From an uncultured Gammaproteobacteria bacterium (GTDB lineage: Bacteria; Patescibacteriota; Microgenomatia; CAZETR01; Amesbacteraceae), in the NCBI GenBank assembly GCA_964360495.1, contig CAYHWU010000004.1:1-27160 (forward strand): 27,160 nucleotides of DNA, written 5' to 3'. A program made the position numbers and the translations under genes. Numbering within the stretch: the stretch's first letter is position 1; every line of letters starts with the position of its first letter. Shown here piece by piece: positions 45 to 27,138 of this stretch. The notes beneath the pieces were generated by a model. The model made no database searches and was not told where the DNA came from. It worked only from the letters and a program-made list of their open reading frames with translations.

Positions 45-321
45 TGGTTGCGGGGCTGGGAGTCGCGCCCAGTCTGAAAGATTATGCTTGTTCTGTATTC
101 TTGAGTTACCCCAAGTGTCGGACTATATCATCTCCCGATTAAATCGGGAGTTTGGCGTGTAGTCTCTACGGACTCTCTGGTTTCCCAGGTTGCCTCGGTA
201 TTGTCCCGCATAGCTTTACGCGACGTGGGATGTCCACCGATACAGCCAAATTTTCATTCCTACATTACTGTAAGACGGGCCCATACTACTAGCCTTTCGT
301 GCAGCTCTACACTACCCCGCA
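45..321 (-). tRNA. Initiator-like tRNA-Met (CAT), split by a group I intron; exons 321-291 and 86-45
   Basis: The spliced sequence TGCGGGGTAGTGTAGAGCTGCACGAAAGGCT^CATAATCTTTCAGACTGGGCGCGACTCCCAGCCCCGCAACCA folds into a 73-nt cloverleaf with encoded CCA. The acceptor arm GCGGGG/CCCCGCAACCA matches bacterial tRNA-fMet. Confidence 0.88.
87..290 (-). ncRNA. Group I self-splicing intron (204 nt, no ORF) inserted after U33
   Basis: The 5' exon ends GGCU and pairs with IGS GGCC (U.G at the splice site); the intron ends in G. P2 has a GUAA loop (259-274), P3 is UUUGGC/GCCAAA (245-250/151-156), P7 uses GAGACUAC (159-166) and GAUAUAGUCC (120-129), P8 is a hairpin (132-150), and P9 has a GUAA loop (100-115). 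Confidence 0.93.
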
Positions 322-4733: not shown

Positions 4734-5189
4734 CTAAAATGAATTAAGCGTTTCGGCTTTCAGGTTTGTTATTCCTGAAAAATCTTTAGTGTTTTCTGTC
4801 ACAAGAGTGTGTATTCCATTTGACAATAGTGTAGCTGCAAGAAAAATATCGTGAATTTTTTGACCTTTGGGTTTATTCTTCATTATCAAGTCAAAAAACG
4901 TTTTTCCTGTACTTGTCGTCGGTAGTATTAACTTAATATTTTTGTTCCCCAAAAGATTTTTAATCACCTTAACTGCTTGGCTGGCAGCCATGAATCCCGG
5001 AAATCTTTTTTTATCAGTTGCTACAGCGTAAAGCTCTGATAAATTTTGCCAAGTAATTACCCCCAGTATTCTCTTTTTTGATAAATTGTTTATAAATTCT
5101 TTTGCCTTCTCATGATAAATGCTTTCACTGTTTAATGAATACACCAATATGTTTGTATCAATGCCTATTTGAAAATCGTCAAAGTTCAT
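4734..5189 (-). CDS. vapC: PIN-domain (VapC-like) toxin
   Basis: IDTNILVY...SELY...IHDIFL...TENTKDF carries the PIN acidic residues. Start taken at ATG 5189, which overlaps the antitoxin stop. Confidence 0.88.
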   Translation of the reverse strand: MNFDDFQIGIDTNILVYSLNSESIYHEKAKEFINNLSKKRILGVITWQNLSELYAVATDKKRFPGFMAASQAVKVIKNLLGNKNIKLILPTTSTGKTFFDLIMKNKPKGQKIHDIFLAATLLSNGIHTLVTENTKDFSGITNLKAETLNSF

Positions 5190-5406
5190 AAGCGTCGGCT
5201 CGTTTGAAAACATAGTTCGGATTACCCAATTTATGTGTTTTCAGTACAAACTCTTTCTCGGGTTTTGTTTTTATTTTCAGTTTGTCTTCCAACCCCTCTC
5301 TTACAAAGCCAGTCAAAGTATTTCCCATGCTTAGTGCGTGGACTTTAGCCAATGCTATTAGATCAGCAGGAAGATAAACTGTGGTTCTTACCATTTGTGT
5401 ATTCAT
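5179..5406 (-). CDS. Ribbon-helix-helix antitoxin (VapB-like)
   Basis: 'VRTTVYLPADL' beta-strand plus two helices; lies directly upstream of the PIN gene. Confidence 0.82.
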   Translation of the reverse strand: MNTQMVRTTVYLPADLIALAKVHALSMGNTLTGFVREGLEDKLKIKTKPEKEFVLKTHKLGNPNYVFKRADAYEL

Positions 5407-5441
5407 AAGTTTATGTTAACATAATAACATAATTATGTCAA
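5407..5441 (-). promoter_or_regulatory. TA promoter TTGACA-17-TAACAT with palindromic operators
   Basis: -35 at 5436-5441, -10 at 5413-5418; palindromes ATGTTAACAT (5413-5422) and ACATAATTATGT (5427-5438). Confidence 0.75.
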
Positions 5442-5911
5442 GACCAGGTCACTTCTGCTATGCCTGCTTGTTTACTTTTTGTCCTAGCCATTACAAAAAG
5501 CGCATCCGACAATCTGTTCATGTATTTTAAAATATTTTTTTCTTTAATTTCCAACTTAACAATCTCTCTTTCTGCCCTACGGCAAACGGTTCTGGCAACT
5601 TGCAGAAAACCCACTGGATAAATAAAGTTTTTAAGTTCTGGCAAGTCACGGGTCAATTTATCAATTAATTTTTCTAGGTGAGTTGTCTCATAACTTCCAA
5701 ACTTATGTTTTTTGGATCCAGCCAAAATAGAATTAATGGCCATGAGATTAGTTTGAATTCTCTGCAGCTCCTTATCTTGTCCACAAATCCCAAGCCAAGA
5801 ATTTAGTTCGTCGACGGTTCCAAGTGTAATTGCCAGTTGATCACTTTTACTTATCCTTCCACGAAATGTTCCCGTCTCCCCTTTGTCACCTTTCTTTGTA
5901 TAAATCGGCAT
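5438..5911 (-). CDS. PduO-type ATP:cob(I)alamin adenosyltransferase
   Basis: MPIYTKKGDKGETG, GTVDELNS, ARTVCRRAER, YMNRLSD. Start at 5911 is supported by TATAAT-6-ATG. Confidence 0.9.
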   Translation of the reverse strand: MPIYTKKGDKGETGTFRGRISKSDQLAITLGTVDELNSWLGICGQDKELQRIQTNLMAINSILAGSKKHKFGSYETTHLEKLIDKLTRDLPELKNFIYPVGFLQVARTVCRRAEREIVKLEIKEKNILKYMNRLSDALFVMARTKSKQAGIAEVTWS

Positions 5912-5918
5912 GGCCAAA

Positions 5919-6311
5919 TTATACCTCACCCTTTTTATTTCCCTCTCCTGCTACAGGAGAGGGAATATTACCTTTAATAATTAAAATTACTTTTTCTAAA
6001 TCATTTTCAATTTGGTTGTTCCAAAAACGAAGAATATTTATTCCAAGAGATTTTAAATACTTTGAACGAAAAATATCATATTCAGTATTACTTTTATGCT
6101 GTTGACCATCCAACTCAATACCCAAGCTTGCTTCTGTCGAATAGAAATCTAGTATGTATGGACCAACGCTATATTGGCGTTTGAATTTTACTCCAAGTTT
6201 ATTGTTTCTCAACTCTTCCCAAAGTATGCTTTCCCATTTAGTTAATTTCTTTCTCAGATAGAGTCTTCTGGTTTTCATTTTACTGGAGTTGAATAGAATC
6301 TCTCTCCACAT
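5919..6311 (-). CDS. DUF559 / Vsr-like PD-(D/E)xK endonuclease-domain protein
   Basis: 'LRKKLTKWESILWEELR...KFKRQY..GPYILDFY....LGIELDGQQH...LGINILRFWN'. TAATAT lies 6 nt before ATG 6311; the C-terminal PSPVAGEG is encoded by the repeat hairpin. Confidence 0.9.
   Translation of the reverse strand: MWREILFNSSKMKTRRLYLRKKLTKWESILWEELRNNKLGVKFKRQYSVGPYILDFYSTEASLGIELDGQQHKSNTEYDIFRSKYLKSLGINILRFWNNQIENDLEKVILIIKGNIPSPVAGEGNKKGEV
5921..5964. repeat. Left half of the element: ATACCTCACC plus CCCTCTCCTG-cta-CAGGAGAGGG hairpin
   Basis: Hairpin arms 5940-5950/5954-5964. Confidence 0.88.
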
Positions 6312-6325
6312 ACCTATATATTACT

Positions 6326-6363
6326 CCCCTCTCCTGAGGCAGGAGAGGGGCTGGGGGTGAGGT
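6326..6363. repeat. Right half of the element: CCCCTCTCCTG-agg-CAGGAGAGGGG hairpin plus GGTGAGGT
   Basis: Hairpin arms 6326-6336/6340-6350; terminal motif 6356-6363. Confidence 0.88.
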
Positions 6364-6365
6364 CT

Positions 6366-8558
6366 TTAACACTCACTATAACCACAGCCATAGCATTTTT
6401 TACATCCTTCTTCAAAAGCAAAGGTTGCCTCTCCACACTTTGGACAAAGGTCACGATGAATAGTGAGTTGTTTTGGTGTTTCAGATTCAGGCTGATAGCC
6501 GATCATTCCAAAATGCATGCCCAGGGCACGGGCCACGGCATCTGGTAAACTCTTAATTTTGTTGGGCCCAAAACCGACAGATTTGCCTCCACCAATACCT
6601 TGGAGTTGCTGCATAATTTCTCGCGCCCGTTCACGGGCTGGCAAGTGATTGCCAAATCTCAAGGTTGTCGATATCAGTCGACCCAAGGCTTCTGCCATGG
6701 CAGCCACTTCACTGCCTGCTTTGCCAATAATCACAAATACTTCAAAAGGATTGCCATCGGGATCTTGGTTTACAGTAATAAACGATACCCCCAGAGGAGT
6801 TTCTATGCGATATGTAGCCCCTTCCACCTTAGCTGGTCTAGGCTTAACAGTTGGTGTAGTATCTTCTACGACATCAGATGGTTTGAAACCACAAGTCACA
6901 CACATTTTCTCTCCATCTTTCATAAACAAAATTGCATCACATTTTGGACATTTATCTCTTATTTTTTCTTTAGCATCCAGCACTTGTACTTGTCTACTTC
7001 CGTCTCTGTAAACCGTAATACTTTTGCATCCAGTTTCATATGCCATCCAATAGGCTTTATCTACGTCTTCAACTGTCGCATTGTTTGGTAAGTTGATAGT
7101 TTTAGAAACTGCATTATCTGTATATTTTTGGAAGGCAGCCTGATGTCTAACATGCCACTGCCAATCTATTTCCATTGAAGTTTTGAATATTCGTTTAATA
7201 TCGTCAGGAATATCCATGTTTTGAATGGATCCTTCTTTGGCAATTTTTTCTATCAATTCATCACTGTAGAAACCTCTCTTTTGAGCAATATCTTTAAAAA
7301 TCCAATGGGCATCGCGGAAGGATCCAACATAAGTATTCTTCATGGTCACAATCCCAAAGATCGGCTCTATGCCTGAAGAACAGCCTGCCAACAAACTAAT
7401 TGAACCAGTTGGAGCAATCGATGTCAGGGTGGTATTTTTACGTTTCCCCCCACCCAAGGAAATTGATTCCTCCTCGGCGGTATCGTTGATAAACTTCATT
7501 ACTTTCTCGCCTAATGTAAGGGCTTCTTCTGAATCATAAGGGATACCCAAAAGTAAAAGCATGTCTGCCCAGCCCATAATTCCCAATCCAATATTTTTGA
7601 AAAGGTTTGTTCTTTCTTGAATCTTTTTCACTGGCCAAAAAGCGACATCAATAGAGCCATCCAAGAAACGAACACCTGTGCGAGTGGCTGCTTCTAGTTC
7701 TTTCCAATCAATTTCGCCATTTGTTACAAATCTAGACAAATCTAAAGAGCCTAAATTACAAGAAACATGTGGAGGAAGCATTTGTTCACCGCAGGGATTA
7801 CATGCCTCCACTGGTTCTGGATATTTATTTAGTCTGTTAACAGTATCGATAAAAATAATTCCAGGATCACCATTATTCCAGGCATGTTGGACTATATAGT
7901 TCCAAAGATCACGAGCTTTAATAGTCTTGAACACCTTGCCTCCAAACTGTAAATCCCAATCAGCATCATCTTTTACTGCTTTCATAAACTTGTCAGTAAC
8001 TGCAACTGAAATATTAAATGTCCAGAAAGCACCCTCTTTATCTTTACACTGGATAAACTCAAAGATGTTTGGGTGATCACAATTGAGAATTCCCATTTGA
8101 GCTGCATGTTTTTTACCTGCTCTGTGAACCACTTCCATGGCATTATGGAAAAGGCCCATGAACGACACAGGACCACTAGCCTCCCCACCACTGGTACTAA
8201 TAAGATTTCCTTGAGGTCTCAAGTGACTAAAGTTGTAACCAGTTCCCCCACCATATTTTTGCACCTGACAAGCATCATTCAACGCCTGCATAATGCTGTC
8301 CAAACTATCGCCTACTGGAAAGACAAAACAACTGGAAGCAAATGGGTGCGCTGTGCCCATGTAAGCCATGCGTGAGGGAAAGAATTTCCCAACTTTTATT
8401 GCATCAAAGAATTCTTGAACCCTTCCAGTTTTTTCTCCTGCGTGCCCAGCCACTCTTTTCACCACGTCATCCCAAGTCTTCTCATCACCTTGGGTGTATC
8501 TTTTAACTAAAAGACTTTGGTTAACTTCTGGACGTGATATTGGAAATAAGTTTGGCAT
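6366..8558 (-). CDS. nrdJ: Class II (adenosylcobalamin-dependent) ribonucleotide reductase with C-terminal TSCPD-like and Zn-ribbon domains
   Basis: SSCFV, GGGTG, NPCGEQ, SCNLGSL, SIAPTGSIS, SSGIEP, AVSKTIN, YRDGSR and two CxxC..CxxC ribbons; no evident ATP cone. Confidence 0.93.
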   Translation of the reverse strand: MPNLFPISRPEVNQSLLVKRYTQGDEKTWDDVVKRVAGHAGEKTGRVQEFFDAIKVGKFFPSRMAYMGTAHPFASSCFVFPVGDSLDSIMQALNDACQVQKYGGGTGYNFSHLRPQGNLISTSGGEASGPVSFMGLFHNAMEVVHRAGKKHAAQMGILNCDHPNIFEFIQCKDKEGAFWTFNISVAVTDKFMKAVKDDADWDLQFGGKVFKTIKARDLWNYIVQHAWNNGDPGIIFIDTVNRLNKYPEPVEACNPCGEQMLPPHVSCNLGSLDLSRFVTNGEIDWKELEAATRTGVRFLDGSIDVAFWPVKKIQERTNLFKNIGLGIMGWADMLLLLGIPYDSEEALTLGEKVMKFINDTAEEESISLGGGKRKNTTLTSIAPTGSISLLAGCSSGIEPIFGIVTMKNTYVGSFRDAHWIFKDIAQKRGFYSDELIEKIAKEGSIQNMDIPDDIKRIFKTSMEIDWQWHVRHQAAFQKYTDNAVSKTINLPNNATVEDVDKAYWMAYETGCKSITVYRDGSRQVQVLDAKEKIRDKCPKCDAILFMKDGEKMCVTCGFKPSDVVEDTTPTVKPRPAKVEGATYRIETPLGVSFITVNQDPDGNPFEVFVIIGKAGSEVAAMAEALGRLISTTLRFGNHLPARERAREIMQQLQGIGGGKSVGFGPNKIKSLPDAVARALGMHFGMIGYQPESETPKQLTIHRDLCPKCGEATFAFEEGCKKCYGCGYSEC

Positions 8559-13311: not shown

Positions 13312-15423
13312 ATGAACATCAAAACGTTAGTAAAGAAATATAAACGACGGTTAATACTAATTGGGATTTGTGGCTTGGGATTTGGGATTTGGATCTTCTG
13401 GGGTTTGCCCAACCCCATGCGTCTGACCACCAACCCCTCACCAGCTTCAACCAAAATTCTAGATCGAAAAGGAAAATTAATCTACGAAGTTTTTTCCGAC
13501 CAAAGACGCACCCCGGTGTCTCTCAAATCTTTACCTATTCATGTGGTTCGTGCCACCTTAGCAGCCGAAGACCGCGACTTTTATACCCACTCGGGTTTTT
13601 CCATTCGCGGAATCGCTCGGGCTTTTTTGAGTACTTTTTTCAAAAATAACGTTCAAGGAGGATCAACTATTACCCAGCAGTTGGTCAAAAATGCCCTCTT
13701 AACTTCAGACAGGACAGTCAGACGCAAAATTCGAGAATTTATTTTGAGCGTTACCGTCGAAATAGCTTATTCTAAAGATCAAATTTTGGAGATGTATCTT
13801 AATCAAGTACCTTATGGTGGAACTGCCTACGGTATTGAATCAGCCGCCCAAACTTATTTTGGTAAATCGGCCGATAAATTGGATCTGGCTGAAGCTGCCC
13901 TTTTGGCCGGACTTCCTCAGGCCCCATCCTATTATTCCCCCTTTGGTTCCCACCCCGAGGAAAGTAAAAACCGGCAAAAATATGTTTTGGGTCAGATGAA
14001 AGACAATAAAATGATCTCTGAAACAGAATACGATTCTGCACTAAACGAAGATCTAAAGTTTATTATTGCCGACTCCATCAAAGCCCCCCACTTCGCTCTC
14101 TGGGTCAAAGATTTGTTGGTCTCCAAATATGGTCTACAAAAAGTTCAAGAGAGTGGGCTTATGGTGACCACTACTTTAGATTTGGAGATTCAAAAATTCG
14201 CTCAAGACGCAGTGGCCACCGAAGTGGCAAAGCTTAAATTGGAAAGAGTTGGTAATGGAGCAGCTCTGGTCACGGCACCCAAGACTGGTCAAATTTTGGC
14301 CATGGTTGGCTCTAAAGATTATTTTGATATCAAAGCCGATGGTAACGTCAATGTCACTCTAGCCAGCAGGCAACCTGGGAGCGCCATCAAGCCTATCAAC
14401 TATGCTTTAGCTTTGGACCGTAAACTAATTACCGCCGCTTCAGTTTTGGCTGACAAGCCCACCTGTTTTACTCAGCCCGATCAAAAGATGTATTGTCCAG
14501 TTAATTATGATAACCAATGGCACGGACCAACCCAAGCCAGATTTGCCTTGGCCAATTCTTTCAACATTCCTGCGGTCAAAACCTTAGTTATTAATGGCCT
14601 GACCGACTTTGTGGCTTCGGCTTCGGCTTTTGGAATTACGAGTTTTAAGGATCCGACTAAATATGGCCCGTCTCTGACATTGGGTGGGGGTGAAGTAACC
14701 ATGCTTGAAATGGCAACCGCTTATGGTGTTTTGGCAAACGCTGGACAGCGCGTAAATCTCAATCCAATCCTTGAAATTCGTGATCTCAAGGATGAGATCC
14801 TTGAAAAAACTCCAGTGTTACCATCCAATAAGCGGGTGATTTCAGCCGGGGCCGCTTTTATTACCTCTCATCTACTATTTGATAATGGGGCTAGAACTGC
14901 CACTTTTGGTCCGAGTTCGTATCTCGTCGTCAATGCTCACCCCGAGGTTTCAGTTAAAACCGGAACTACTAACGACAAGCGCGATAATTGGACCATTGGT
15001 TATACCCCAGATTATCTGGTGGCGGTTTGGGTGGGCAACAACGACAACACACCTATGAGCAATGTGGCCTCTGGTGTCACTGGCGCCTCCCCCATTTGGA
15101 ATAAAGTCATGTCATCTATTCTCAAAGATAAGAGTATTCATTGGCCTACCCAACCCCCAGAAGTGGTCGGGGCCATGGTCTGCTCGCTTTCTGGCCAACG
15201 AGCCTCTGACCCTCCACCAGCTAACTGTAGCCCACGTTATGAGTATTTTTTGACAGGGACACTACCAGCATTTCAAGTTGACGATCTCAGACGGGACCTT
15301 GACGGTCAAAGTCACTTGGTGATTTTTGACGCCCTGGGCCTGCAATTGTGCTTAGACTGCGCTGGAGGCTACGGTGAGGCTGATATTATCAAGCTGGATC
15401 GAAATGGCCGTGGACATCGTTAA
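13312..15423 (+). CDS. Class A penicillin-binding protein (PBP1A family), copy 1
   Basis: Transglycosylase motifs EDRDFY, GGSTITQQLVKN, RKIRE; transpeptidase motifs SAIK, SFN, KTG. Confidence 0.95.
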   Translation: MNIKTLVKKYKRRLILIGICGLGFGIWIFWGLPNPMRLTTNPSPASTKILDRKGKLIYEVFSDQRRTPVSLKSLPIHVVRATLAAEDRDFYTHSGFSIRGIARAFLSTFFKNNVQGGSTITQQLVKNALLTSDRTVRRKIREFILSVTVEIAYSKDQILEMYLNQVPYGGTAYGIESAAQTYFGKSADKLDLAEAALLAGLPQAPSYYSPFGSHPEESKNRQKYVLGQMKDNKMISETEYDSALNEDLKFIIADSIKAPHFALWVKDLLVSKYGLQKVQESGLMVTTTLDLEIQKFAQDAVATEVAKLKLERVGNGAALVTAPKTGQILAMVGSKDYFDIKADGNVNVTLASRQPGSAIKPINYALALDRKLITAASVLADKPTCFTQPDQKMYCPVNYDNQWHGPTQARFALANSFNIPAVKTLVINGLTDFVASASAFGITSFKDPTKYGPSLTLGGGEVTMLEMATAYGVLANAGQRVNLNPILEIRDLKDEILEKTPVLPSNKRVISAGAAFITSHLLFDNGARTATFGPSSYLVVNAHPEVSVKTGTTNDKRDNWTIGYTPDYLVAVWVGNNDNTPMSNVASGVTGASPIWNKVMSSILKDKSIHWPTQPPEVVGAMVCSLSGQRASDPPPANCSPRYEYFLTGTLPAFQVDDLRRDLDGQSHLVIFDALGLQLCLDCAGGYGEADIIKLDRNGRGHR

Positions 15424-15430
15424 ATTGAGC

Positions 15431-15459
15431 TTGCAATACATCCCATAGTATTGTAAAAT
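15431..15459 (+). promoter_or_regulatory. Promoter TTGCAA-17-TAAAAT for PBP copy 2
   Basis: The -10 box ends exactly 6 nt before ATG 15466. Confidence 0.7.
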
Positions 15460-15465
15460 GCCCCG

Positions 15466-17616
15466 ATGCTTACGAAACTTCTGGTGGCTATTGGCAAACC
15501 TATTTATAAAGGTCTGACTTGGTTTTTTAAAAAACGCTCAACTTTGCATCAACTCCTCCGCAGTTTATATTTAGTCAAAATAAATGGCCCTGTGGGTGTT
15601 AAACCAAAAACAGGACATAGATACCTCATTTTGGCATTTATCATTTTGTCATTTGTCATTTACTTATACGTTTTTAAAGACTTACCATCACCCACCACAC
15701 TTACTACCCAACCAGTTCCACTAACCACTCACATTCGTGATCGCAATGGAGTCACCCTATATAAATTTTATAAAAATCAAAATCGTACTTTAGTTAAACT
15801 CTCAGACATGCCAGAATATCTCAAACAGGCTGCCATTTCAATTGAAGATAAGCAGTTCTATAGTCACGCCGGTTTTTCAATTACTGGAACTATACGGGCC
15901 TTTTTTAGAACTACTTCTGGAAAACAAGTCGAGGGTGGGTCAACTATCACTCAACAATTGGTCAAAACAGCTCTGCTCTCACCAGAGAGAACCTTGCAAC
16001 GTAAAGTGCGTGAATTAGTTTTGGCAATGGCTGTCGAAATCTTATATTCCAAAGATCAGATTTTAGAGATGTATTTAAACAGAGTTAGTTATGGAGGAGA
16101 AACTTATGGAGTTGAAGAAGCTTCTCAGATATATTTTGGTAAACCAGTCAAAGAATTGACACTGGCTGAAGCGTCACTTCTGGCTGGGCTTCCCGCTTCT
16201 CCGACAACATATTCCCCATTTGGATCAAAGCCAGAGCTTGCCAAGAACCGTCAAAAAGAAGTTCTCCGTCGGATGGTTGAGGATGGTTATATCACTTGGG
16301 ACCAAGCCCAAAAAACAAGCAACGAAGAATTGAAATTCATGCCCCAAACAGTAGATATTAAAGCTCCTCATTTTGTCATGTATGTTCGAGAACTTTTGGC
16401 TGAAAAATATGGAGCCGACGTTGTTGAACAAGGAGGCTTGGACGTAACCACATCTCTTGATTTGAGTATTCAAGACCAAGCAGAAAAAATAGTTAAAGAT
16501 GAAACAGCCAAAGTGGCCTATTTGCATATTGGCAATGGAGCCGCTTTAGTTACCAATCCCAACACTGGAGAAATCTTGGCCATGGTGGGATCCCGCGATT
16601 ATTTTGATACCAAGGCCGATGGCAACGTCAACGTGACCCGGGCTCTAAGGCAACCCGGAAGTTCGATCAAGCCTGTTAACTATGCTCTATCTTTTATAAA
16701 TAATTTTACCCCGGGATCTTTGATCGACGATTCACCCATTACTTACAATGTGGCTGGTCAACCCAGCTATTCTCCAGTCAACTACGATGGAAAGTTTCAC
16801 GGAAAAGTCACACTACGAACAGCCTTGGCTTCGTCTTACAATATTCCCGCGGTTAAGTTACTGGCCGCCAATGGTATTGATAAATTTATCAATCTTGGCC
16901 AAAAAATGGGTATCACCACCTGGGATGATCCCTCCCGTTTTGGCTTGTCGCTGACTTTGGGTGGTGGCGAAGTGACCATGCTCGATATGGCCAAAGTCTT
17001 TGGAGTTTTTGCCAATACCGGACTGAGAACTGATCTTCAATCAATCCTTTTGGTCCGAGACGCTAAGGGTAAGGTTTTAGAAAAAATGGAAAGTGTCAAA
17101 TCAGAGCGAGTTATGGATACAAGAATCGCCTATCTTATTTCCGATATTTTGTCAGACAATTCTGCCCGGGCTCCAGCTTTTGGCTATAGTTCTGACTTGT
17201 TCATTCCAGGACAAATGGTAGCTGTCAAAACCGGAACCACCAACAATTTAAAGGATAACTGGACAATTGGTTATACTCCAAATCGAGTAGTGGCTGTCTG
17301 GGTCGGCAACAATGACAATTCTTCCATGAGTTATGTGGCCTCAGGTGTTACTGGAGCTTCTCCAATTTGGAGAAAGATTATGAATGCTATCTTGGACAAA
17401 CAAGCACCTACTGTTTTTACTCCCCCATCAGATCTAATTAAAGTAAATATTTGTATTATTACTGGAGAACTCACTTGTGCAGGTTGCCCTACCAAAGCCG
17501 AATTCTTTATTCCTGGAACTCAGCCCGCTCGAGCTTGTAATCCTGACGCAATCAAAAAGATTCAAGAAGACAAAGAGCGCGATAAAATCCTCAATGGTGC
17601 TAAAATTGGTCAGTGA
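15466..17616 (+). CDS. Class A penicillin-binding protein (PBP1A family), copy 2
   Basis: EDKQFY, GGSTITQQLVKT, RKVRE; SSIK, SYN, KTG. Confidence 0.95.
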   Translation: MLTKLLVAIGKPIYKGLTWFFKKRSTLHQLLRSLYLVKINGPVGVKPKTGHRYLILAFIILSFVIYLYVFKDLPSPTTLTTQPVPLTTHIRDRNGVTLYKFYKNQNRTLVKLSDMPEYLKQAAISIEDKQFYSHAGFSITGTIRAFFRTTSGKQVEGGSTITQQLVKTALLSPERTLQRKVRELVLAMAVEILYSKDQILEMYLNRVSYGGETYGVEEASQIYFGKPVKELTLAEASLLAGLPASPTTYSPFGSKPELAKNRQKEVLRRMVEDGYITWDQAQKTSNEELKFMPQTVDIKAPHFVMYVRELLAEKYGADVVEQGGLDVTTSLDLSIQDQAEKIVKDETAKVAYLHIGNGAALVTNPNTGEILAMVGSRDYFDTKADGNVNVTRALRQPGSSIKPVNYALSFINNFTPGSLIDDSPITYNVAGQPSYSPVNYDGKFHGKVTLRTALASSYNIPAVKLLAANGIDKFINLGQKMGITTWDDPSRFGLSLTLGGGEVTMLDMAKVFGVFANTGLRTDLQSILLVRDAKGKVLEKMESVKSERVMDTRIAYLISDILSDNSARAPAFGYSSDLFIPGQMVAVKTGTTNNLKDNWTIGYTPNRVVAVWVGNNDNSSMSYVASGVTGASPIWRKIMNAILDKQAPTVFTPPSDLIKVNICIITGELTCAGCPTKAEFFIPGTQPARACNPDAIKKIQEDKERDKILNGAKIGQ

Positions 17617-27050: not shown

Positions 27051-27138
27051 ATACCTCACCCTCGATCCCTCTCCTACTTGGCTAAAGCGATTCGACAGAA
27101 TCGAATTAGGAGAGGGAAGCTTCAGCAGGGAGAGGTAT
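27051..27138. repeat. Gene-less copy B of the palindromic element
   Basis: Outer inverted repeat ATACCTCACCCT/AGGGAGAGGTAT (11/12); inner CCCTCTCCTA (27067-27076)/TAGGAGAGGG (27107-27116); nested CGATTC/GAATCG hairpin. Confidence 0.85.

Follow-up and report, generated by a model that had tools for sequence, protein, structure and literature searches.

A DUF559 nuclease gene between inverted copies of an intrastrand-triplex-type repeat, present as a unit between nrdJ and an adenosyltransferase gene in a Patescibacterium

Why should a small nuclease gene lie between inverted copies of a palindromic repeat, wedged between a ribonucleotide reductase gene and a cobalamin adenosyltransferase gene? 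The question is raised by a stretch of 27,160 nucleotides (the window) at the start of contig CAYHWU010000004.1 (assembly GCA_964360495.1), from an uncultured bacterium of the family Amesbacteraceae (Patescibacteriota; Microgenomatia) whose genome comprises 738 kb in 93 contigs with a GC content of 38.8%. Names attached to homologues place it among Candidatus Amesbacteria-like Patescibacteria of the Hainich groundwater. The order on the minus strand is nrdJ, a gene of the DUF559 nuclease family and a PduO-type cobalamin adenosyltransferase gene, and the DUF559 gene together with its two repeat ends makes up a cassette of 441 bp. This cassette is real and probably a selfish element. For the fuller proposal, prompted by a preliminary description of the locus, of a selfish system in which the nuclease and the repeats work together, the chances appear evenly balanced. 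Below, labels beginning with G, C and L denote genomes, contigs and loci. The parts of the locus, all on the minus strand, are as follows.

6366-8558, minus: nrdJ-type (class II) ribonucleotide reductase, 730 aa (Pfam Ribonuc_red_lgC, E 7e-121, plus TSCPD)
5924-6364, minus: whole inserted cassette, 441 bp, with left repeat end, DUF559 gene and right repeat end (from the comparison with empty junctions)
6326-6363, minus: left (5') repeat end, with arm ACCTCACCCC (6363-6354), CAG spacer and hairpin (6350-6326) (repeat model R1, E 3e-9)
6318-6323, minus: TAATAT hexamer that ends exactly 6 nt ahead of the DUF559 ATG and may serve as the -10 box of a leaderless mRNA (from the sequence)
5919-6311, minus: DUF559 (Vsr-fold PD-(D/E)xK) nuclease gene, 130 aa (PF04480, E 2e-30)
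5923-5965, minus: right (3') repeat end, with hairpin (5965-5939), 7-nt spacer and arm GGGTGAGGT (5931-5923) (R1, E 1.6e-5)
5438-5911, minus: PduO-type ATP:cob(I)alamin adenosyltransferase (PF01923, E 5e-42)

The cassette is built around one intact DUF559 gene between inverted copies of a three-block repeat: an outer arm, ACCTCACC, is followed by a short spacer and by a perfect hairpin of 11-12 bp, CCCTCTCC/GGAGAGGG. At the left end the hairpin has a perfect 11-bp stem and a 3-nt loop, and 14 nt lead from it to the DUF559 ATG at 6311; at the right end the stem is a perfect 12 bp, again with a 3-nt loop. The stop codon of nrdJ (TAA, 6368-6366) is separated from the outer arm of the cassette by 2 nt (AG). 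From about residue 116 onward the DUF559 protein is encoded by the right-end hairpin, spacer and arm, which supply its last 15 codons, and the stop codon TAA (5921-5919), about 1 nt past the inferred cassette border, belongs mostly to host sequence. The true start of the adenosyltransferase gene is the ATG at 5911, 7 nt past this stop. As single-stranded DNA the repeats fold with z-scores of -6.6 to -7.3 (right end -7.2), the left end alone being weaker (-2.6). The gene core has a GC content of 30.3% against the genome mean of 38.8%, which corresponds to the 2.4th percentile of genome windows, and the composition of the cassette looks AT-rich and foreign. The preliminary description had listed the order arm-hairpin-DUF559-hairpin-arm, a start 2 nt after the nrdJ stop that parts this gene from the adenosyltransferase gene, final codons that are the repeat itself, and AT-richness (15/60 G+C at 6001-6060): every one of these features is present in the sequence.

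The same description had suggested looking in relatives for the junction without the cassette, and such junctions were found, the gene and its two ends being absent or present as one unit. In three relatives (L067, L068 and L070) the nrdJ stop overlaps the adenosyltransferase ATG and the cassette is absent; their adenosyltransferase is 85% identical to that of the window in amino acids, and the aligned flanks are 79-88% identical in nucleotides. The sources of these relatives are a different well in the same aquifer and a separate public run. A contig of an unrelated groundwater run (X13), from a relative about 90% identical, joins position 5911 to 6366 and represents a further empty site. A slightly more distant relative (L071) has a spacer of 114 nt between the two genes, the end of which, TATAATTT followed by four nucleotides and ATG, agrees, as far as the edge of the cassette, with the host sequence found after GGTGAGG in the window. 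This match implies that the inserted stretch is 5924-6364, with the outer arms as its bounds and the DUF559 stop largely in the host flank; the borders given above were set by these four junctions and by the contig joint in X13. The 441 bp thus form one unit, set exactly between the stop of nrdJ and the -10 box that belongs to the adenosyltransferase gene. This box is left intact: TATAAT and 6 nt (5912-5923), followed by ATG, begin at the last base of the cassette arm, and an identical TATAAT-6-ATG arrangement is found in L071.

In a wider comparison, nrdJ and the adenosyltransferase gene are directly adjacent in at least six genomes across the class. In the genus of G018 the spacer between them contains a gene-less repeat of that genus's own variant, a possible landing site or scar, and G003 has a repeat and a truncated DUF559 gene downstream of nrdJ. 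The locus of the window has been assembled independently in several samples and runs, with the exact DUF559 protein always in the same context; a homologue 93% identical to it (P0004) exists, and copies of the locus carry an NrdR gene upstream of nrdJ. A small conserved open reading frame of the pattern CxxC...CxxC...CC, ending in KDPCCE, overlaps the end of nrdJ in three loci (L071:2387-2500, L010:1188-1355 and L009:1395-1565); it is missing from the window, where the cassette occupies the spacer between nrdJ and the adenosyltransferase gene.

The assignment of the cassette gene to DUF559 is clear: the match to PF04480 scores 105.2 bits against a cut-off of 20.6 and covers profile positions 5-105 of 109. 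A match to NCBIfam NF007294 (E 6e-23) scores 81 bits, under the model's equivalog cut-off of 218. The protein aligns to a solved DUF559 protein (PDB 3HRL) with an E-value of 2e-17, and D55, E66, D68, H72, D79, R82 and R95, in the predicted active-site region, are identical to the aligned residues. DUF559 and MTES_1575 are the only Pfam families matched, no HUH enzyme being encoded, and PADLOC returned no anti-phage defence match for the protein. As for expression, the proposal that the gene has its own -10 box stands in part. The spacing of TAATAT from the ATG fits a genome-wide pattern, as TAnnnT ends exactly 6 nt before 16.4% of the first ATGs of long frames and before 2-6% at other spacings, a five-fold enrichment that points to widespread leaderless mRNAs in this genome; a scan for the sigma-70 two-hexamer consensus called no promoter for the gene. 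The right-end hairpin scored as terminator-like only when read on the strand opposite the DUF559 gene.

The cassette is not alone in its genome. A covariance model of the repeat unit finds about 13 elements, of which about nine are gene-less and three are cassettes. Hairpins that combine a perfect stem with an all-pyrimidine, GC-rich arm are rare, with just 11 in the 738 kb: four flank two DUF559 genes, one flanks a third, and the remainder are gene-less copies. The downstream hairpin of the third gene falls outside this census and reads as a perfect 12-bp stem, so that all three DUF559 genes of the genome (on C4, C10 and C72, C4 being the contig of the window) are bracketed by such hairpins. 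The variants at the two ends are the same on C10, nearly the same on C4 and different on C72. Two gene-less copies with the same termini, noted in the preliminary description, lie in the window and belong to the same repeat family.

378-442, no strand assigned: gene-less copy, two outer arms and a single central hairpin, with a further small hairpin in the spacer on the right; a tRNA-Met gene is 43 nt away
27052-27138, no strand assigned: gene-less copy, two-armed, with a degenerate right arm (GGGAGAGGTA); its 30-nt loop encloses a nested hairpin

The small extra hairpins nested in these copies (420-436 and 27089-27105) have similar counterparts in relatives (L004, L103), which suggests that the elements are modular or nested. 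Another gene-less repeat, at C10:2623-2681 (L050:2590-2730), is flanked by an imperfect direct repeat of about 33 nt (ATTGCCCCTTCGGCTTGGT...AATTAT), which may stem from the insertion event, as a long duplication, or represent another repeat family.

What kind of repeat bounds the cassette? The outer arm proved to be neither a direct nor an inverted copy of the hairpin arm: it mirrors that arm, A and T standing in for each other. In a test on 43 units from 17 genomes, the units of the window included, a mirror model with A/T wobble matched at 9/9 positions in 35 units; permuted partners averaged 7.3, and 0.05% of random windows reached 9/9. A C in the stem faces a C in the arm in 250 of 256 cases, and a T in the stem faces T 68 times and A 50 times. 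A direct-repeat model of the arm (slipped pairing) was ruled out, since it reached 9/9 in none of the 43 units. The spacer between hairpin and arm is most commonly 3 nt (25 of 42 units), a value also seen at the left end of the cassette; it is 7 nt at the right end, where the conserved core words stand 10 nt apart, and in gene-less copies one side has 12-18 nt. Mirror repeats are not read by duplex-binding proteins; they are the hallmark of intrastrand triplexes of the purine motif (G.G:C, A.A:T, T.A:T).

This organization is that of the BoxC, potential intrastrand triplex (PIT) and triplex motif (TM) repeats, whose Escherichia coli form is designated TMECO. Such repeats are present in hundreds of genomes, and triplex formation by them has been seen in vitro; they are said to have been known since 1992, through the work of Bergler (1992) and of Hoyne & Maher (2000, 2002), and we know of no established function, origin or mechanism of mobility for them. 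The cassette repeat, judged by its blocks and words, is a member of this class, and the preliminary idea of a new repeat family has to be given up. As in the published class, a pyrimidine block is followed by a complementary purine block over a 3-6 nt loop and by a third, mirroring block, here most often after 3 nt, and the elements are multi-copy, dispersed and mainly intergenic, at variable loci. The words are nearly the same, GGAGAGGG ... GGGTGAGG here against GGGNGAGGG N3 GGGNGAGGG in E. coli. The full consensus reported for TMECO/BoxC/PIT is CCCTCNCCC N3-6 GGGNGAGGG N3 GGGNGAGGG (Holder et al. 2015, PMC4666352). According to the same study the repeats are tied to local rearrangement, and neither a transposase nor an integrase nor any other gene of mobility was ever found close to the motifs; earlier work cited there detected neither promoter nor terminator activity of PIT elements in E. 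coli. The present case departs from the published one in that the repeats form both inverted ends of a nuclease cassette and that the gene-less copies are two-armed; the right-end spacer of 7 nt also differs from the N3 of TMECO, the folding computed here being of the Watson-Crick type. In E. coli K-12 itself, which has 23 TMECO loci, the start of the DUF559 gene ycjD falls in a 13-bp hairpin and its end in an incomplete copy of the motif; a full TMECO follows about 170 nt farther downstream.

If the nuclease and the repeat belong together, they should travel together among relatives. The survey covered 40 related genomes, 24 of the same family and 16 of other families of the class. DUF559 was found in 15 of the 24 family genomes (16/25 with the present one), in 1-6 copies each and with some pseudogenes, and in one of the 16 others. 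In 15 related genomes, a pyrimidine/purine hairpin precedes the start of nearly all intact copies by 25-60 nt, and a second one spans the stop. Stems vary in sequence by locus: the two ends are usually similar, with clearly different subtypes at several loci. The reading frame through the hairpin is not conserved among these loci, which identifies the repeat as a nucleic-acid feature and not a protein motif. At DUF559 loci from other families of the phylum a hairpin is present on at least one side in 11/12 cases and on both sides in 6/12. The expectation that DUF559 genes would be flanked by such hairpins across genomes has therefore been borne out, near-universally so within the family. In the other families (L125-L136) the order is often hairpin-arm, gene, arm-hairpin, so that the third block points towards the gene and not away from it as in the window, and many DUF559 matches there lie inside open frames of 400-1300 aa, suggesting in-frame cassettes.

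The abundance of the repeats follows the same line, as had also been anticipated. Family genomes with DUF559 have a median of 41.5 repeat-model matches (range 10-131), and those without it have 0, 0, 0, 0, 1, 7, 8, 9 and 42 (median 1). Matches and DUF559 correlate within the family with a Spearman coefficient of 0.76, or 0.67 after the genes' own flanks are subtracted; these values come from a model trained on DUF559 flanks and from related genomes that are not independent, which tempers them. An even sample of 151 phylum genomes from many families, 28 of them with DUF559 (1-7 copies over family and phylum, with pseudogenes), gives a 2 x 2 table of 18/12/10/111, with an odds ratio of 16.7 (p 5e-9).

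On a tree of nuclease cores, from which the repeat-encoded tails had been removed, 7 changes suffice for the repeat type, while shuffled labels take 13.9 (0/200 as low); host-genome labels change 21 times on a companion tree of all kept columns. Within these trees, the repeat variant is shown to follow the nuclease lineage and not the host genome. The DUF559 genes of the present genome on C10 and of G021 on C11 reach 71% identity and have one repeat variant in common, loop included, with no flanking synteny, and another pair (L040, L045) sits in conserved synteny and is vertically inherited. Taken together, these findings indicate that cassettes move as units, but rarely.

How might such a cassette spread? 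In the selfish system envisaged here, the nuclease would recognise the repeat that forms its own ends, whether folded as hairpin or triplex or present as duplex, and would nick or cut there, after which host recombination or repair synthesis would copy or move the cassette in a homing-like manner. This route is more natural than cut-and-paste because a hydrolytic PD-(D/E)xK nuclease cannot rejoin DNA. The repeat arms and hairpins, about 30 bp per side, could serve as homology if the landing site were a gene-less copy. The gene-less copies themselves may be non-autonomous copies, former cassettes whose gene was deleted, or landing sites; if the stretch from one 23-25-bp hairpin to the other were deleted, a gene-less copy with two arms would be left of a cassette. 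A role of DUF559 as the partner enzyme of these repeats is plausible, somewhat short of an even prospect. That the nuclease is also responsible for the gene-less copies, within the selfish system, seems doubtful.

A number of observations tell against recent or nuclease-driven spread. The three DUF559 paralogues of the genome are 44-49% identical to each other, no near-identical paralogues were seen, and the best cross-genome pair reaches 71%: the copies are old. Evidence of recent transposition did not come to light, and the repeats of a relative without the gene are equally diverged. No excision, inversion or new junction within the strain's own population appears in the assembled contigs, which are silent on rare events. 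No target-site duplication could be defined for the cassette or the gene-less copies; the T...A beside the arms is readable as a TA duplication or as part of the mirror arm, and the left flank of the cassette (AG) lacks it. The gene-less copies of this genome have CCTAA/TTAGG stems and the cassette has CCTG/CAGG stems. In the congener G023, which has two DUF559 genes, most gene-less copies are likewise variants other than those around these genes.

The relative without the gene, G001, bears on an alternative in which the repeats spread or rearrange without DUF559, through another enzyme or structure-induced recombination, and the nuclease gene is cargo or an addiction-type gene. In this genome, 95% complete, no DUF559 was found even at E<=10, and yet there are 42 repeat-model matches (about 23 elements), whose nearest-neighbour identity (0.77, against 0.78 in G023) and diversity equal those of the gene-bearing congener. 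Three further genomes with 7-9 matches also lack DUF559, and genomes in general carry many repeat variants and few DUF559 genes. Identical gene-less copies surround an ordinary transketolase gene in G002, and in G001 gene-less repeats lie in frame within ordinary genes (L084-L087; C33, C42, C29 and C14), which means that the repeats spread alone, or leave scars, whatever lies between them. The tie to local rearrangement drawn by Holder et al. (PMC4666352) fits the same explanation. The host genes in G001 are argS-like, glycosyltransferase, membrane protein, 5'-3' exonuclease-like and MerR-like genes, and the repeats encode PPLNLRGG-like peptides.

Such an independence of the repeats would account less well for other facts. 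At a site where G023 and G018 have a cassette, G001 retains an arm and half a hairpin, a deletion remnant indicating that the gene was formerly present. The bracketing of DUF559 is near-universal over many families, with similar variants at both ends in most loci, the co-occurrence at genome level is strong and the repeat type follows the nuclease tree. Furthermore, no other gene family was seen repeatedly bracketed, in data for which no systematic survey was made. A mere passenger role of the nuclease is a serious alternative that we consider rather unlikely.

A second alternative assigns the cassette a function for the host: the protein would be a domesticated Vsr-like nuclease for repair or structure processing, and the hairpins would act as insulators, terminators or mRNA stabilisers of a potentially toxic gene. 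The intact gene with its conserved predicted catalytic residues, the vertical inheritance of some cassettes in synteny (L040, L045) and the terminator-like right-end hairpin agree with it, the last only on the strand opposite the gene. A host function is nevertheless improbable in view of a distribution that is patchy (16/25 family genomes, or 15/24 without this one, and 28/151 in the phylum), of copy numbers of 1-7 with pseudogenes, of a junction that is empty in close kin and of the same cassette lineage in unrelated contexts. The AT-rich, foreign-looking composition, the lack of promoter and terminator activity of PIT elements in E. coli (PMC4666352) and the non-conserved frame through the hairpin point the same way. 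Chance juxtaposition or mis-assembly at repeats, which a genome fragmented into 93 contigs with two repeat copies at contig ends (just 2 real cases among 186 ends) might have suggested, has a negligible probability, as the locus was assembled independently in several samples and runs and the same layout recurs in dozens of genomes.

The selfish nuclease-plus-repeat system invites comparison with known ones. The RAYT/IS200-like layout is a proven nuclease-repeat partnership, and the systems of repetitive extragenic palindromes (REP, and their paired form REPIN) with REP-associated tyrosine transposases (RAYT) were reportedly described by Nunvar in 2010 and by Bertels & Rainey in 2011. The cassette shares with them a single nuclease gene set between inverted copies of a palindromic repeat of its own, many dispersed gene-less copies and a repeat variant particular to each gene lineage. 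It differs in its enzyme, a hydrolytic PD-(D/E)xK nuclease of the Vsr fold instead of an HUH Y1 transposase and hence incapable of covalent strand transfer, and in the mirror third block of its repeat. Compared with IS200/IS605 elements, which have subterminal hairpins and insert beside a fixed tetra- or pentanucleotide, the cassette lacks an HUH enzyme, and the only feature common to the flanks is the T/A beside the arm, which is readable as part of the mirror arm.

What looks like a classical REP/RAYT-like system is present in the same Patescibacterium. The genome has six Y1_Tnp (RAYT/IS200-like) genes, three of which (G000:C13:15096-15840, that is L144:1297-2041; G000:C2:8511-9212; and C9:7669-8404) are bracketed by T[TC]CCACC...GGTGG[GA]A hairpins with their own loop variants. 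Genome-wide there are 21 such hairpins, gene-less copies included, and they are distinct from the DUF559 hairpin family. In G001 an insert of 889 bp (G001:C13:12875-13764; L143:2855-3744) encodes a putative Y1/RAYT protein, recognised by eye, and is flanked by CCCACCTCTCGGGTGGG hairpins. The same intergenic site holds a DUF559 cassette in G023 and nothing in G018: two different hairpin-bounded nuclease cassettes thus use one junction.

Homing endonucleases of the Vsr fold offer a second parallel; I-Bth0305I (PDB 3R3P) is reportedly one of them, and Dassa et al. are said to have treated such enzymes in 2009. A survey of the PD-(D/E)xK superfamily places DUF559, Vsr and 3R3P in the same group. 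Like a homing endonuclease gene, the cassette is a small, probably selfish gene with a presence/absence polymorphism at a conserved junction. Unlike those of the Vsr fold, it has no intron or intein and no known cleavage site, lies between genes rather than within a target gene, and is bounded by structured inverted repeats that also occur alone. Short, dispersed, gene-less palindromes with terminal inverted repeats are also typical of Rickettsia palindromic elements and miniature inverted-repeat transposable elements, and the in-frame translation in G001 adds to this likeness; a DDE transposase partner and a definable target-site duplication are missing here, and at the present locus the element is intergenic and carries a gene.

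A hint of the association is contained in published data. Among genes flanked by inverted repeats, 'DUF559 domain-containing protein' is enriched 14-fold, in a table row that stands without interpretation (Milman et al. 2023, PMC9881135). The cassette layout would yield this enrichment among the targets of programmed inversion sought in that study, and no inversion was seen here in the assembled contigs. No description of a DUF559-repeat partnership was found in those parts of the literature naming DUF559 that were seen, for most papers less than the full text. The repeat class and the enzyme family are thus already known, and the partnership is analogous to REP/RAYT without the HUH enzyme.

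Three other features of the window deserve a brief mention. At 4734-5406, on the minus strand, a 75-aa gene and a PIN-domain gene form a toxin-antitoxin-like pair between the adenosyltransferase gene and a 136-aa gene; the latter two are directly adjacent in the close relative L067, which makes the pair a second small insertion in the same operon. At the contig start, beside tRNA genes, 99-300 (minus strand) matches a group I intron in Rfam with 52.5 bits. Finally, 14249-17382 contains two stretches about 76% identical and 2.27-2.28 kb apart, which suggest tandem paralogous genes.

To our knowledge, DUF559 is among the commonest nuclease families without a characterised function. Tentatively, it may be the long-missing partner of the BoxC/PIT/triplex repeats, from Patescibacteria to E. 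coli: a hydrolytic Vsr-fold nuclease that would read the folded or duplex repeat and, by cutting there, would copy, move or homogenise both the repeats and its own gene, a possibility we regard as rather unlikely. A systematic link between the two, if true, would give each a testable role, and it would represent a second, non-HUH kind of nuclease-repeat partnership beside REP/RAYT. It would also explain why DUF559 genes appear as false 'inversion targets'. E. coli has a single DUF559 gene, ycjD, which lies beside such repeats and therefore provides a tractable test case. In the tiny genomes of uncultured Patescibacteria, the same link would explain insertions at intergenic junctions such as that between nrdJ and the adenosyltransferase gene and, in relatives, inside coding frames.

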